From positions 1 through 64,000 of the forward strand of contig MU006097.1 of the NCBI GenBank assembly GCA_010093705.1: a DNA stretch of 64,000 nt. Direction: 5' to 3'. The notes beneath the pieces were generated by a model. That model was not told the DNA's origin, ran no database searches, and was given only the letters and a program-made list of their open reading frames with translations. How positions within the stretch are numbered: position 1 is the stretch's first letter; each line of letters opens with the position of its first letter. This DNA comes from Patellaria atrata CBS 101060. Taxonomy: Eukaryota. The position numbers were made by a program, and so were the translations under genes. Below are positions 23,534 to 31,399 of the stretch, in pieces.

Positions 23534-25576
23534 CTATCGCAGAGGGACCTTAACATCTTGCACACCACTCTTTATTACATCCTCTAGCTTCCATCTCGGT
23601 GGAGTGACCGAGGGTTTCTTGCCTGTAGCTTCCATCTCGCGTCTAATCTCTTTCTCCATCTCGTTGGTTAAGCCATCAGGTAATGGTTCAGCACCGCCGG
23701 CAATGCCGCTTGAGAACTTGAGTTGGACCTCGTTTCCGATCTCATTACAAGCAGTCAGCATTCTGTCTAAGTCGTCTTTTGTATGAGCTGCCGAGACGCA
23801 GAAACGAGCGCGAGATGAAACGAGGGGAGTAGCAGGATATCCGACTACGACGACGGAAATCTTGCGCTTTAGCATTTGGTGAGAGAAAGCCGGCATCTTT
23901 GCGGGATTGTAAAGCATGAGGGGAATAATAGGAGAGTCATCATGACCAACGACAATGAAACCTAGCCGCTTGAGCCCTAGGCGGAGGTATCGAGAGTTGA
24001 AAGCTAATCTTTGCAGTCGCTCTTCACCTTGGCCTGGGCTAAGCTCTCCTGTAATGATCTTGAGGGCTGACAGAATTTGCATAAGCACAGGTGGAGTGGG
24101 TGATTCGCCAAACATGGTACCTGCGTTCGTAGCACGGAGTTTGTCGATAATGGGTTTGTCTGCGGCAATATAGCCTCCATTTGCGCCAAATGACTTCGTG
24201 AGGGTACCCATAAGAATGTCAACTTCAGCAGGATCGATACCGAAGTAATCGCATACGCCACGTCCTTTTGGTCCAAGTGCTCCGACGGAGTGCGCCTCAT
24301 CGACGTAAAGACTGAATTTGTACTTTTTCTTGAGCTCGACGAGGCCTGGAAGATTACACATGGTTCCCTCCATGGAGTATAAACCTTCGACAGCAACGAG
24401 GATCTTCTTCCACGGACGATGTGTTCTTGGTTGACCCTGAGAGATTACTTCTCTAAGTAAGCGTTCCAAATCTTGCATGTCGTTGTGCTTGAACATTTCT
24501 ATCATAGCTCCCGATAATCTCGCGCCGAATCGAATTGATGAATGGTTGAGCTCGTCAGAGATGATAAGACATCCTTTCCCCATGAGAGCAGGGAAAGCAA
24601 CAGCGTTTGTGACAAAGCCCATCGAGAATACCATAGATGCAGGTTTCCCAACGAATTTAGCAATGCAGTCCTCGACCTCCAGATGAAGATCTGTAGTACC
24701 AACATCTCCTCTAGAGCTAACGGTGCTGATACCGTATTTTTTAACTGTGGCTTCTACAGCATCCGCACAAGGGCCCTCCGACTGTGCAAATCCGAGGTAA
24801 TTGTAGGAGCTCATATTAAGAGTTTCCGTGGTAGTACCTGTGAACTGGAAATTGTAGAATCCATCGTTCGAAGTCCTATCAAGGAGAGTGATATATCGAC
24901 CTGGGACTCCTGTGGTCGGGCGATTAAAGCAATCATTGATACGCATCTTGAGCCGACGAACGTAAAAGTTATCGAAATCGCTATTCAGCGGAGCGTAGCC
25001 GTTCCTTTCCATAAGATGTTGGTAATAGTTTTTCCTGAATCGTTTCCCAAAAAAGTCTCGAACGTGTCCAAAGATGATAAGAATAAGATATGAAATATAA
25101 GTCGTCAATAGGAAAAAGTACGGTGGTTCATCTTCAATAGGTTCGGGAAACTCTCCTCCAGTAAATCTGCTCGAGTATCTATGAGTTTGCGAACCTAGGG
25201 GACCGAATTGAGCGTGTTGTCTAGCAATTCGACGCGCTTCCTCCGGCGAAGGAGGTTGGAAGATAGTTGTTGTCCGATCTTCCATTGCCTTCTCGCCCGT
25301 CGCAGTGGACAAGGATATAGTAGGTAAGGATAGTGTCGAGACGTTGATGGAAGGCGAGGGAGAATTCCGCAGAGCTCTCTGCTGAGCAGCGAGCGCAGCT
25401 TGGAAGGCTGGGTCGCTAGCCTTCGACTTAGGAGACGTTGAAAAGAATGACGTGAATCGATTATTCGTTTTGGAAAGAGAGGACCTCCTAACGTTCTTCT
25501 TCTCGCTTGGTGGATCGAGAATAGATGCGTTGGGAGAGGGATTGCTAGCGAAAGGGTTGATGCTTCGAGTAGGCAT
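23534..25576 (-). CDS. LCB2: Serine palmitoyltransferase subunit 2
   Basis: Motifs LNMSSYNYLGFAQ, SDELNHSSI, YVDEAHS and the PLP lysine motif GTLTKSFG. Single 680-aa exon. Confidence 0.96.
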   Translation of the reverse strand: MPTRSINPFASNPSPNASILDPPSEKKNVRRSSLSKTNNRFTSFFSTSPKSKASDPAFQAALAAQQRALRNSPSPSINVSTLSLPTISLSTATGEKAMEDRTTTIFQPPSPEEARRIARQHAQFGPLGSQTHRYSSRFTGGEFPEPIEDEPPYFFLLTTYISYLILIIFGHVRDFFGKRFRKNYYQHLMERNGYAPLNSDFDNFYVRRLKMRINDCFNRPTTGVPGRYITLLDRTSNDGFYNFQFTGTTTETLNMSSYNYLGFAQSEGPCADAVEATVKKYGISTVSSRGDVGTTDLHLEVEDCIAKFVGKPASMVFSMGFVTNAVAFPALMGKGCLIISDELNHSSIRFGARLSGAMIEMFKHNDMQDLERLLREVISQGQPRTHRPWKKILVAVEGLYSMEGTMCNLPGLVELKKKYKFSLYVDEAHSVGALGPKGRGVCDYFGIDPAEVDILMGTLTKSFGANGGYIAADKPIIDKLRATNAGTMFGESPTPPVLMQILSALKIITGELSPGQGEERLQRLAFNSRYLRLGLKRLGFIVVGHDDSPIIPLMLYNPAKMPAFSHQMLKRKISVVVVGYPATPLVSSRARFCVSAAHTKDDLDRMLTACNEIGNEVQLKFSSGIAGGAEPLPDGLTNEMEKEIRREMEATGKKPSVTPPRWKLEDVIKSGVQDVKVPLR

Positions 25577-27140
25577 GATAGTAGGTTCGAAAGGGCCCCT
25601 GGGTTGATTTGCTGGAGATCTTTGAAGATGTCCAATTGCAATTTAGGATAGGAGAGGAGAAGGGCGTAAGATGATGGAGTCGATGCGTAAAGGTCTAGCA
25701 GATTTGTAGTTTTATGGAGGTGCTGAGTCAAACTATACAGAAGTACTTTCCAGTATTAGCCACTATAGCTCAAGGAAGAATCATCAAGCAGAAAATATTT
25801 TAGATGGTACTGGTGGGAGTGAAGAGGGAAGCAGTTTGTTGTAATTTCTCTCGACCGGAGGTGCGCGGGAAAGAAGGAAGCATCCGGCTCACGAAGAGAT
25901 TCTCTTAAAGGTTGAAGCGCGTACTGGGACAATTTTGCTTTTTGAATTGCATGTAAGATAGGAGGAAATAGGTTTACTTACAAGCGACAGGTATTGCACA
26001 CAACGTCTGAGCCCTTAAAAGAGCGAGGAAGAGCTGTTGTAGCACAAAAATCTCCAACGGCCGCGAGGAGCAAAGGAGAGAAATGGAGCTCTGGCGATGC
26101 TGGGCGAGACTGCAAGGTACCCACGTCCGAGGCCCAAGCCCCCCCGCAGACCCCCTTATTAAGATTTCCACGCGACGGCTTCCCGACAAATGTCCGGTTT
26201 CCAAAAGCTACGGCCTTCGATCAAGAGTCCGATATTGCGAAAAGAAAAGGAAATAGAAGTATAAGGAACGATTGAGGTGAAAGGAAATAAGGACTTGAAG
26301 ATGGTACGGATCAGATATCTCTTAAAATTGAGTTGAAATTAAATTTCGAAGATCAAAGGTCAGCCAGTAAGAAAGCAGAGAAAGGGAAAAGCTAAATACA
26401 AGAATGATACAGGGATAGGTAAGCATGTGGTAAGCCCAACGGTTATAACGAGATACCCGACCCGACGGCGTTAGGTTACGAGTACTGAACTGTATTATAC
26501 GACAAGGTTGGATATCTTGCAATTGGTTCTGTCTACTGATGTACAGTACAGCACTCTCAATTATAGTCGTTTAGATTTATCCTTCTGTGAGATCCTCATT
26601 CTCGATCGGATACAATTGAGTGAATATACAGTACTATACTCTATGGGAGTAATACTACAGGTAATAAATCCGTTTGCAGATCTTAGGCATGAGTCGAGGC
26701 AACCCCTTTTCATAGGCTAGACCGCTCTGTGACTCCAAGCAAATGGGCAAGAAATGCAAGTTGTCACCTTATTCACCCACATCAAGACCCTTCGTTCAGA
26801 GATACAAGCATGAATCGTAACCGGTATATATGGTTTGATTCAACCGAGCAGATTGCACTTTTACTAAGCTCGACTCTTGACCCTGATTCCAGCTGCCATG
26901 CAAGAATGGGAGCAATGACGAGCCGTCGTAAGCTTTCAATACCACCTTAACCAACTCTCAGGGTGATAAGAATCAATTTACTATCCTACATGCTTTTGAG
27001 AAATGTACCTACATACGCTGCGATTGAGGAAGCCAGCGGAAATGGGTGGCAAGATCATCAAAGTGAGAGATGCCCAGATGCGTTTGGACGTCGTACCTTT
27101 TGATCTTACCTTTCCATCCCAATCAACGGCCATGTGCTTT

Positions 27141-27179
27141 GCAGGTAAGTATTTCCCGGTACAACCTATACTCACCCAC
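27141..27179 (-). promoter_or_regulatory. Hairpin pairing a 5' splice-site-like motif with an exact U1 snRNA 5'-end sequence, downstream of the U1-70K stop
   Basis: The minus strand reads GUGGGUGAGUAU-N15-AUACUUACCUGC, which gives 12 contiguous pairs including 3 G-U. Confidence 0.45.
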
Positions 27180-27600
27180 CAGAAAACAAAACATAATGAA
27201 AAGATTAAAGAAGACCTGGGGGAGCAGCAGCTTGGCTAGTAAAACATGAGAAAAACCAATTCCAATCCCACTTCTTCCGCTTACCCGTGTTTGTCGTGTC
27301 GGGCAAATTACTTGTTGTGTGTGCGAAAGAGTTGACGGGGCGGTCGTTCGAAGCGGTATCGGTAGTATCGGCGACGTATCTGGAAACTGAGAGAGTTTGC
27401 GCATGCTTACCCTTGCAATGATAGTTGCGAAAGTAGCTTGGGTGAGAAAAGACCAGCTAAAGCCGTCCAAAAATTGTCTGCCTTACCCTTGGTGTGAAAG
27501 GGGTGAAGTGTGAAAAGTGTGAATGCGAAAATCGAGTATACCAGGGACACAATGGACATGCTATAGTCCAGTAAAAGAGCTGGAACTTGCAACAGCGAGT

Positions 27601-28908
27601 CTAGTACCTTCTCTTGCTTCTGGGGTCGTCGTATCCATCACCGCCGTAGTTGCGTTTCTTGGAACCATCGTCTCGTCCGTAGGGGCCGTCATGTTCGCGA
27701 TCTCTAAACCCAGATCCTGGTTCGCCTCTCTTACCCACAGGTTCACGGTTGCTTCCACTTCCGCGATCGCCCCCCCTGTATCCTCTATCTTCGTAGGGTC
27801 GACCACCACCATTAGGACCATCCATGGGACCGGAATTACCGTAACGGCCGCCACCTCCATACCCACCACCAAAGCCGCCTCCTCTACCACCACGAGGTCC
27901 GGAGGGTGCTCCTTCGGGAGGCGCTCCATTACCTTGGAACCCGATACCGCCTCTACCTCCACTATACCCACCTCTAAAACCACCTCTATCTCCGCCAAAG
28001 CCTCCTCTGAAGCCGCCGCCGCCGCCTCGACCACGGAAGCCTCCACCACTAAATCCACCTCGGAACCCACCAGGACCAGCCGGAGGACCAAACCCTCCTG
28101 AGCCTGATGGTCTTGCTGGAAGCGCCTTAGTATATCCACGTCCGCCTAGACCGCCTCCAAAGCGTCGAGGTCGCCATCCAGAAACGGTCCTGCCACGCTC
28201 GACGTCAACAAGTACTCGTCGGTCTTTGATACGGATACCATCGGTTTCTTTGTAAGCGGCTATAGAAAAGAAAGCAGAGCTCTCGTGTTAGTCTTGATCA
28301 CACAGATTTACCTGATAGGGGAGGATTGGAGTTGGGGAATTGGGATGAGTGCTGCAGTACCCTTCATGTCCTTCTCACGCTCATATACAATGAAAGCATA
28401 GCCTTTCGTTTTCTTCTTCGCTAATTTCTCTGGACTTGCGTGAGTATCGGCAACAATACGTATCTATGTGCTTGTCAGCGATGAACTGGTGATACGATGA
28501 TAAAAATGATAGATAAAAACATACCCTTTCAATAGGGCCGAAACGCCCGAACTCTCTCTCGAGATCTTTAACTTCTGTATCATAGCTCAACCTAGCTACG
28601 AACAGTGTCTTGAAAGCATCTCCTCTCACTTGCGGATCCTCGTCTGGTTTGTATTCCTTGACGCCCTCCGTCAAAAGATTCGTAATCTTCTCCTTCTTCT
28701 CCTGTTTGATCCTATCTCTGCGCTGCTGCCAGCTCTCGGTTGGGACATAATGATCATCGTACTCCTTCAGAGCTTGAAGATAATCGCCAACACCGGTAAT
28801 CTTCGCGGTCCGGCGATTTTCGGGCGCATGGTCGGCGTGAACTAGGTATCGCAATGCTGGTCGCGGTGCGAAGAGCGCAAGAAGATTTGGTGGGAGTTTA
28901 TCTGTCAT
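27601..28908 (-). CDS. SNP1: U1 snRNP 70 kDa protein (U1-70K), 3 exons
   Basis: [31 protein letters not shown]...[23 protein letters not shown]...[22 protein letters not shown], and an RGG-rich tail. Introns at about 28524-28464 and 28360-28260. Confidence 0.96.
28281..28306 (-). promoter_or_regulatory. Candidate U1 stem-loop-I mimic hairpin overlapping the branch point of U1-70K intron 2
   Basis: The sense RNA reads UCU-GUGU-[GAUCAAGACUA]-ACAC-(G)-AGA. The loop resembles the U1-70K-binding loop GAUCACGAAG. The branch sequence GACUAAC spans the loop/stem junction. Confidence 0.55.
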
Positions 28909-29435
28909 AATGGCATTTGTCAAAATGAAGCGCCGATAAATCAAGATGACAGGCACGTAGGACCCGATCCAGATATGTTCTGGGGATGAAAACAATAAAA
29001 GGAATGAGTTGAAGTGGAAGGTTGGGGTTACAAGGATCGCGTCCAAGGCTTAGTAACTCTAGTCGTGGGACTGCAAACCGCCCAAAATCAATGGGACCAT
29101 CAGACTCTCCCTATACTGAGAGGAAATTAACACCAGAAAGACAATAGTTATAGGACCGTGAAGAAGTCAGAATATTTTCCCTGATACATAGAATATACTG
29201 GTCTCTTCAGATTTTCAAATTTGCTCGAATTTTATACCGTAATCCCTTATTGAAGAAGGTGACTTTCTGTTAGTCCCACGATTAGTTACCAAGCCTTGGT
29301 CCCTTTCTCTCAGTGCCAAGAAAAACCCTTTTCCAAATAAGGCCCGTGCACCATCTTCGGCTTCAAACAGTTCAACTTTCTAGCGATGGAATAATGATAT
29401 ATCGTTATCATACTTCCTCCACAAGTGTCATCAAT

Positions 29436-29960
29436 ATGCCTCTTGCAGCATTAAGGTCTGTCGCCAAAGGCCAGGTATTTGCATTCCTCTAAAATCCGTT
29501 CACTCTCCAACCAGACTAATACTTGAATCCGTAGAATGGCGTCGGCGCATTCGTGCTCCAATGCAAACGCCTCGATTTTCATTACTGCGACTGGGCGGGC
29601 AGTTCGAAGGGCATGAAGTATGGCTGTCAAACAGGATTTCTCTTCATCTACTAATTCCCCTTTAGCTCCTTTCTTAAGCACACCCTTCCGAGCTTTGCGA
29701 AAAAGCACCCTCAAATCGAAATCCGCGTATCCCCACGACCGAGTAAGCATCCCGTCATCAAAGCATCCTATATAAATGGGCGTGAGAAGGCCATTTGTGT
29801 ACGAAATATGGAGAAAGAAGAGATTCTTCAAAAAGCTGAGCTATTACGAGATGCCAGTGGAGAAAAATTGAAACGGACGCTCAATAAACCGGTGAAGAGT
29901 TTAAACGAAAGCATAAGAGGTGTTTGGAGTCCGTTCCATGGAGCTCGATATCAAATATAA
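29436..29960 (+). CDS. MRPL51: Mitochondrial large ribosomal subunit protein mL43, 3 exons
   Basis: Exons read MPLAALRSVAKGQ / NGVGAFVLQCKRLDFHYCDWAGSSKGM / ...HPVIKASYINGREKAICVRN...SIRGVWSPFHG. Confidence 0.93.
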
Positions 29961-30183
29961 TGGGCAATGGAATTTCAAGATTATATACCATAGCATTATC
30001 ATGGCGTTTGGACAACGGTTTCAGTATATCGACCCTGTAACAATATCTCTTGCACAAAGATCGAGCCCCAGAGGATGTTCAGAGGGGTTGCATATGTTCA
30101 GGTATCGCAATTTATGTATACCTTCTACATGTTGAATCTCCCGTTTTCCAGCCCTGTACCATTCCCCACGTCTCATTACCTGC

Positions 30184-31399
<1,216 letters not shown>

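Follow-up and report, generated by a model that had tools for sequence, protein, structure and literature searches.

The window analysed here, the whole stretch of 64,000 nucleotides, is fungal sequence, and its minus strand carries the gene for the U1 snRNP protein U1-70K (SNRNP70). The first coding exon (28525-28908, 128 codons) matches the Pfam family U1snRNP70_N (E 1.1e-30), is 80% identical to U1-70K of Botryosphaeria and has 521 homologues at E<=1e-20, with Dothideomycetes at the top of the match list. Exon 2 (28361-28463), recognized by its sequence and splice signals and continuous with the homologues, is flanked by introns of 61 and 101 nt, and the translation of the last coding exon (27601-28259) matches the C-terminal part of the homologues. 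The stop codon is at 27603-27601. Approximately 450 nt 3' of it lies an 11-mer (27152-27142, minus strand) that we take to be the start of canonical U1 snRNA; this identity draws on a preliminary description of the same DNA and refers to the canonical molecule rather than to the U1 of this fungus. The location of the 11-mer and its placement beside the U1-70K gene, both given in that description, were confirmed by a scan of the window and by the Pfam and homologue matches, respectively. The 101-nt intron 2 holds an internal AG and, immediately after it, a donor motif (28311, minus strand), 49 nt from the start of the intron.

Orthologous loci were searched with an alignment of 30 homologues, and the best 80 of 506 confirmed metagenome stretches were taken. 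Ten of these had no peptide anchor and ten ended within the coding region; 35 combined a C-terminus of the filamentous-ascomycete type with 450 nt or more 3' of the stop codon, the L026 group was added manually, and merging of near-identical loci gave 25 UTRs, none of them from a close relative of the window. Judging by the nearest named proteins, these 25 orthologues span Pleosporales, Helotiales, Lecanoromycetes, Sordariomycetes, and others. Further relatives were limited to one UTR-less fragment in genome_contigs and none in viral_contigs, and no Botryosphaeriales-level or closer relative with a usable UTR was found among the loci searched. Genes upstream of SNRNP70 (29655-31200), one of which looks like triosephosphate isomerase, are common to about 50 of the 80 loci. 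Also upstream, an element of 30-58 bases at 29042-29099 has copies about 90% alike on two other contigs of the same sample.

The minus strand carries a row of 5' splice-site (donor) motifs between 115 and 595 nt after the SNRNP70 stop codon. Motif D1 (27479-27489, GT 27486) lies 3' of a pyrimidine tract, and by inspection many orthologues have a donor after a pyrimidine tract at about the same distance from the stop. It is followed by D2 (27403-27413, GT 27410) and by D3 (27277-27287, GT 27284), which aligns to a donor-like block in seven orthologues. Module A (27168-27179) contains two overlapping donors (GT 27179 and 27175), is the best U1 complement of the cluster, forms the 5' arm of a hairpin, H1, and has a homologous overlapping-donor module in orthologues. 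The tandem donors B1 (GT 27109) and B2 (GT 27096) at 27089-27112 are of the major GTAAG type and form the 5' arm of a second hairpin, B. A further overlapping donor-like site, C (27004-27016, GT 27016, 27012, and 27008), is the predicted rival partner of the 11-mer in long transcripts.

As judged from the sequences, this cluster of sense donors is conserved across orthologues: the 25 UTRs hold 103 sense donor motifs (16.5 expected), and the tandem pair, a pattern chosen after inspection, is present in 17 of 26 sequences (0.7 expected). Two contigs bear on whether the cluster is transcribed. The first, L035, is identical to the genomic locus L029 at 1,735 of 1,747 aligned bases and is without the 74-nt coding intron of L029; it is also without a 33-nt stretch of the glycine-rich coding region that has no splice signals. 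In L035, the 496 nt of UTR that are colinear with L029 take in D1, D2, and A, and the contig ends at B1. The second, L001, is without the coding intron at the same place and retains the tandem donors within a whole hairpin B element. Both look like spliced messages, and since they are intron-less with the UTR donors kept, the cluster probably lies within the transcript and is mostly unspliced in these relatives. The contigs carry no strand, and assemblies of this kind show the main form and hide rare or decayed isoforms.

Some features around the cluster stand apart from it. In the loci L026, L027, L030, and L031, the first 280 nt after the stop codon hold five donor motifs that sit in short repeats, a pattern that growth of the cluster by local duplication would give. 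A short block at 27248-27236 (minus strand) is kept in five of the seven orthologues with hairpin B and in L002. A long-range helix between 27248-27241 and 26996-26989 that would close the region from A to C was rejected, the 3' partner fitting in only two of these seven orthologues.

RNA structure over the donors is not a general property of the UTR. Contiguous helices of at least ten pairs cover 16 of the 103 orthologous donors against about ten expected, and general masking of all donors is not supported; D1 and D2 are not masked above chance in orthologues (z 0.06 and 0.35), and whole-UTR folds are no more stable than those of shuffled sequences (z 0.29). The tandem donors, in contrast, have a predicted partner. 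In the window, 27110-27101 pairs with 27057-27048 (B1 stem, 10 bp) and 27099-27095 pairs with 27064-27060 (B2 stem, 5 bp), so that the minus-strand segment 27048-27064 is the predicted partner strand of both B1 and B2; the B1 stem has a mean predicted pairing of 0.89 in every window fold that contains it. Hairpin B is common to the window and seven Pleosporales-like loci, where the partner strand is found 35-60 nt downstream of the tandem donors, in UTRs that are otherwise about 54-73% alike by global alignment. In a hand-registered comparison of its 15 pairs in these eight sequences, pairing is possible in 116 of 120 cells on the sense strand, compared with 85 of 120 on the other strand; the pair is preserved in 11 of 15 kinds of departure, and the 15 pairs hold one two-sided change. 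Counted over eight clean rows, the ten pairs of the outer stem are 97.5% paired, compared to 20-53% when the arms are slid, and contain no two-sided change; a shuffle control on this count is uninformative because each column varies on one side only. Covariation is consequently unproven, as almost all changes in hairpin B are one-sided, and the conservation of both arms could reflect constraints on sequence. The predicted pairing of B1 in the orthologues was 0.87 versus 0.56 in flank shuffles (mean z 1.94, n = 7), and that of B2 was 0.82 versus 0.58 (n = 6). A function of hairpin B as a U1-70K binding loop was rejected on the ground that its apical loop is not conserved.

The hairpin is restricted in its distribution. 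A model of hairpin B searched across 81 sources returned only near-duplicates of its eight sequences and weak matches (E 3.1) in L051-L053, and the Pleosporales-like locus L002 lacks it. Outside the Pleosporales-like group, donor masking is at chance (mean z -0.26 for B1 and 0.34 for B2, n = 9 each; 0.37 for A, n = 11). In six non-Pleosporales loci (L020, L041, L073, L051, L065, and L079), the tandem spacer or the second donor can pair downstream, with a partner that contains a branch-like word in most of them; this pairing is possibly a distant form of hairpin B that is unscored by the donor-centred test.

The 11-mer occurs once in the window and is still the sole match when one mismatch is allowed, with 0.89 matches expected by chance. 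It lies 15 nt 3' of GTGGGTGAGTAT, with the donor G at 27175, and together with one additional base (27141-27152, minus strand) it forms the 3' arm of H1, as seen from sequence match, fold, and alignment. The 12-pair hairpin of the preliminary description was reproduced in the 39-nt piece as a predicted stem of nine Watson-Crick and three G-U pairs (-13.3 kcal/mol), and the donor at 27175, the 15-nt gap between the arms, and AGGTAAG at 27111-27105 were likewise as described. On the opposite strand the same stretch is predicted to fold poorly (-5.8 kcal/mol). The arms differ at three places, all of which are G-U pairs on the sense strand, in a helix search that had allowed G-U. Read on the plus strand, the 11-mer is a perfect donor with its GT at 27145.

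How exceptional the 11-mer and its hairpin are depends on the frame of reference. The 11-mer is unusual locally: when the 700 nt 3' of the stop codon were shuffled 20,000 times, it appeared in only 2 of the shuffled sequences. An earlier estimate of about 1 in 4 million stands as a per-position figure, but over 128,000 positions it amounts by simple arithmetic to approximately 0.03 exact matches per window. The stability of H1 within 39 nt corresponds to a z of -2.5, with 4 of 200 shuffles as good, and falls as flanks are added (z -1.4 at 61 nt, -0.65 at 101 nt, and -0.07 at 141 nt). A contiguous helix of at least 12 pairs over donor 27175 arose in 167 of 3,000 flank shuffles (5.6%), and donor A in the window has a predicted pairing of 0.93 versus 0.65 in flank shuffles (2 of 40 shuffles). 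A strand required to pair with every position of donor A would equal the exact 11-mer in only about 0.002 of cases. The 11-mer tracks the consensus donor rather than the neighbouring donor A, and a strand complementary to the consensus donor necessarily reads like the 5' end of U1. Likeness to U1 thus needs no copying from U1, and to call the 11-mer a copy of U1, correct as this is for its letters, was an overstatement. Its exact identity would be explicable by selection to cover several donors, by an inverted copy of an earlier module A, or by use as a plus-strand donor; 10 of the 11 bases of its reverse complement coincide with module A in L060 as well as in L038.

A U1 snRNA gene or pseudogene beginning at the 11-mer would account for the identical first 11 bases, after which nothing further matches. 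With no Rfam match up to E = 5 on either strand of 25500-29700, this reading was rejected and is exceedingly improbable, unless a U1 is present that has diverged too far for the Rfam model to recognize. Seven orthologous loci searched at gathering score contained no Rfam family.

The 25 orthologous UTRs show neither conservation of the 11-mer nor an enrichment of U1-like strands. None of the 25 contains at least nine contiguous matching bases, and the longest exact match in the first 700 nt is eight bases in one locus, seven in another, and at most six in the remaining 23. Near matches of at least 9 of 11 bases over 1,000 nt numbered two (1.6 expected), and antisense donor motifs numbered 24 (24.5 expected). 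In the alignment, the 11-mer falls in a spacer that separates modules A and B, is variable, and is less conserved than any other part of the A-B block. The comparison with relatives that the preliminary description had suggested thus went against the motif, which is absent from 25 of 25 orthologues, none of them a close relative. In the seven best-aligned Pleosporales-like orthologues, donor A is the least paired donor (mean z -0.47), and H1 would accordingly be a departure from the more open state. Of the claim that H1 buries the donor at 27175, what holds is that the stem is good on the sense strand only; the corresponding donor, however, is the least paired one in these orthologues. H1-type pairing was found exactly in 0 of 25 orthologues and has one analogue, in L002, where an A-like donor can form a 12-bp helix with a strand that is like the 11-mer at 9 of 11 bases (z -2.95, the region having been picked afterwards). 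L002 (3970-4060) and L003 represent a Pleosporales-like SNRNP70 UTR without hairpin B in which an A-like donor lies in a 12-pair helix.

Within the cluster, the 11-mer has its best duplex with donor A (-13.0 kcal/mol, compared to -5.6 to -10.8 kcal/mol for six other donors). We followed its predicted partner as the 3' end of the RNA grows, in a series of equilibrium folds. The 11-mer is predicted to pair with A at 0.70-0.93 in five of six lengths that end before about 27020. The proposed alternative pairing with AGGUAAG of B1 at 27111-27105 was predicted at one nascent length, with the 3' end at 27060 (0.66), but was 0.00 at the six other lengths containing B1; it would be transient because B1 has its own conserved partner, and after this length the 11-mer is predicted back on A (0.89-0.90). 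Once the RNA extends past about 27000, the 11-mer is predicted to pair with the C region (0.49-0.71, partner 27013-27006), H1 is at 0.00-0.07 in the same folds, and forcing H1 costs 5.3 kcal/mol. It is tempting to propose, though it is very doubtful, that the 11-mer is a built-in U1 mimic that switches partner during transcription, from A briefly to B1, back to A, and then to site C. If so, the 11-mer would decide which donor U1 snRNP reaches and when, the U1-70K message would gauge free U1 against an internal copy of the U1 5' end during an interval that transcription dictates, and such lids (hairpin B, H1, and the L002 helix) would have arisen independently in different fungal lineages.

We consider it likely that the region after the SNRNP70 stop codon is a U1-sensing feedback element. 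This proposal starts from the cluster, its conservation, its retention in the contigs of two spliced relatives, and the pairing potential of hairpin B in eight sequences, all of which can be read directly in the compared loci, and its functional part is by analogy. A row of 5' splice-site motifs that are normally unused for splicing would sense U1 snRNP. By inference from mammalian systems, abundant U1 snRNP would bind the open donors of the message for its own protein, and the U1-bound message would be poorly polyadenylated or retained in the nucleus, giving less U1-70K. Local stems over some of the donors would raise the U1 level that is needed. The shared cover would be hairpin B over the tandem donors, and a second, lineage-specific cover would be the 11-mer over donor A in H1; both stems are predictions for the living cell. 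The 11-mer may stem from an inverted copy of an earlier, more consensus-like module A. We see an even chance that it is a working, lineage-specific lid on donor 27175. The preliminary description had regarded the 11-mer as an intramolecular competitor of U1; masking of donors is indeed shared in this UTR, but at hairpin B, and the 11-mer is the part that the 25 orthologues do not have.

The lid has to be weighed against a tentative alternative in which the donor cluster and hairpin B are functional and the 11-mer is neutral, being either a chance match or a short inverted duplication tolerated in a free spacer. The position of the 11-mer in the least conserved part of the A-B block, the lack of enrichment of U1-like strands in orthologues, and the unexceptional stability of H1 in its context (z -0.07 at 141 nt, 5.6% chance helices) all agree with neutrality. 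The site was also picked afterwards from a 64-kb window with about 0.03 exact matches expected, and the 10 of 11 bases that its reverse complement shares with module A of L060 and L038 are what an inverted copy would give. Against it stand the rarity of the exact identity, both locally (2 of 20,000) and among strands fully pairing with donor A (about 0.002), and the fact that the three differences between the arms are all G-U on the sense strand, with the reservation about the search already given. Another reading concerns the cluster as a whole: its donors might be spliced at low frequency, creating a 3' UTR intron that targets the transcript for nonsense-mediated decay. A pyrimidine tract and AG precede several modules, a branch-like word and then AG occur in the 3' arm of hairpin B in several loci, and decayed isoforms would be missing from assemblies; according to PMC3798272, vertebrate SNRNP70 couples a donor cluster to decay. 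We regard this reading as rather unlikely, as the two intron-less contigs (L035 and L001) keep the UTR donors unspliced. Two sequencing runs also contain no splice joints, but they are probably DNA from one sample, possibly the source of the window, and carry no information on expression.

Alternatively, the plus strand might give rise to a non-coding RNA that leads from the divergent promoter region of the neighbouring aminotransferase-family gene to within the 3' end of SNRNP70, with the 11-mer serving as an ordinary 5' splice site (GT 27145). The 11-mer matches the consensus donor more closely than it complements its hairpin partner, and further plus-strand donors are present at 26419, 26430, and 26661, the first two of which have a consensus branch site and AG (128 and 117 nt) outside any long reading frame. 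Moreover, both 8-base U1-like matches less than 1,300 nt from the stop codon, in L002 and L041, stand at the start of plausible antisense introns, 55 and 51 nt long, each of which has a consensus branch site and AG. We nevertheless judge the antisense donor unlikely. For 150 nt beyond 27145, the plus strand lacks the combination of a consensus branch site and AG that an ordinary spliceosomal intron would have, with a non-consensus intron of 39 nt or a longer intron being possible. The first branch-like word is 187 nt beyond 27145, and nearer to it the sole candidate intron has a length of 39 nt and a non-consensus branch site; fungal introns are not known to be so short. The register of the 11-mer beside donor A would be a coincidence, and the downstream neighbour of SNRNP70 is common to no locus (no tblastx match). 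The weights given to the sensor, the lid, the neutral 11-mer, and the antisense donor are our judgement.

Several plus-strand features deserve mention in their own right. The segment 26419-26546, with two strong donors (26419 and 26430), a consensus branch site at 26536, and AG at 26546, is probably an intron of a non-coding transcript heading toward the SNRNP70 3' end, which would start upstream of the aminotransferase-family gene at 25576-23534. The putative antisense introns just downstream of SNRNP70 are situated about 1,046 nt (L002) and about 651 nt (L041) after the stop codon, and the core of the L041 antisense donor is also present in L073. A plus-strand protein-coding gene across 25700-27700 was rejected; the best ATG-started spliced frame has 78 codons and no tblastx match.

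Control of U1 snRNP levels has been worked out mainly in vertebrates. Repeated 5' splice-site-like motifs have reportedly been noticed in fungal SNRNP70 and LUC7, and the donor cluster itself may thus already be in print. We found no published description of the fungal SNRNP70 element in a search of mostly open-access literature; the main texts of two fungal structured-RNA surveys (PMC8216456 and PMC5640933) do not contain snRNP, SNP1, or 70K. According to PMC2367729, U1 sites in terminal exons inhibit polyadenylation and lose activity inside stems until about eight bases are free, and the bipartite U1 site in the human U1A 3' UTR (Guan et al. 2007, as reported in PMC2367729) is a natural site repressed by structure. 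The best reading, by analogy, is that the SNRNP70 element would work like the U1A bipartite site. Both appear to place a U1 site in the terminal exon of a gene for a U1 snRNP protein and to restrain it by RNA structure. Here, however, the gene is that of U1-70K, the organism is a fungus, and there are six or more sites rather than one. The sites are conserved, as in the 103 donors and the 17 tandem pairs counted above, and U1 binding and inhibition of polyadenylation would follow by analogy. A protein-bound partner element as in U1A was not identified in the SNRNP70 UTR.

Two other systems resemble the fungal element in part. As PMC3798272 describes it, intron 7 of vertebrate SNRNP70 contains a cluster of 5' splice sites that is read by U1 snRNP as feedback, activates an upstream 3' splice site leading to decay, and is conserved within its lineage. 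The gene and the use of a donor-motif cluster for U1 feedback are thus alike, but the vertebrate cluster is intronic, whereas the fungal one comes after the normal stop codon and has a hairpin over its donors; membership in the intron 7 switch was rejected for this 3' position. The word fungi does not occur in the main text of PMC3798272. The USSE of U11-48K and U11/U12-65K consists of tandem 5' splice sites that are unused for splicing and, in 65K, is tied to the 3' UTR, to nuclear retention, and to a conserved U1 site near the poly(A) site (PMC5473595). Like the SNRNP70 element, whose tandem is retained in L001 and probably mostly unspliced, it places tandem donors in the gene of the very snRNP by which they are recognized. 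However, the USSE is U12-type and binds U11, the two have no sequence relationship, and the available parts of PMC5473595 contain no stem over the USSE; membership was rejected, the SNRNP70 tandem being of the major GTAAG type.

If the U1-sensing element exists as proposed, it would provide a compact system, amenable to genetics, in which U1 acts on 3' ends in filamentous fungi; exact positions for disrupting and compensating mutations are supplied by hairpin B. The weight of the finding lies with the conserved cluster and hairpin B more than with the 11-mer. As a neutral strand or an antisense donor the 11-mer would be a curiosity; as a working lid it would suggest that such thresholds are retuned lineage by lineage. 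Elsewhere in the window, the minus strand at 5861-5833 carries five overlapping donor-like words in non-coding sequence, possibly a simple repeat, which by motif count is the densest donor-like stretch of the window.
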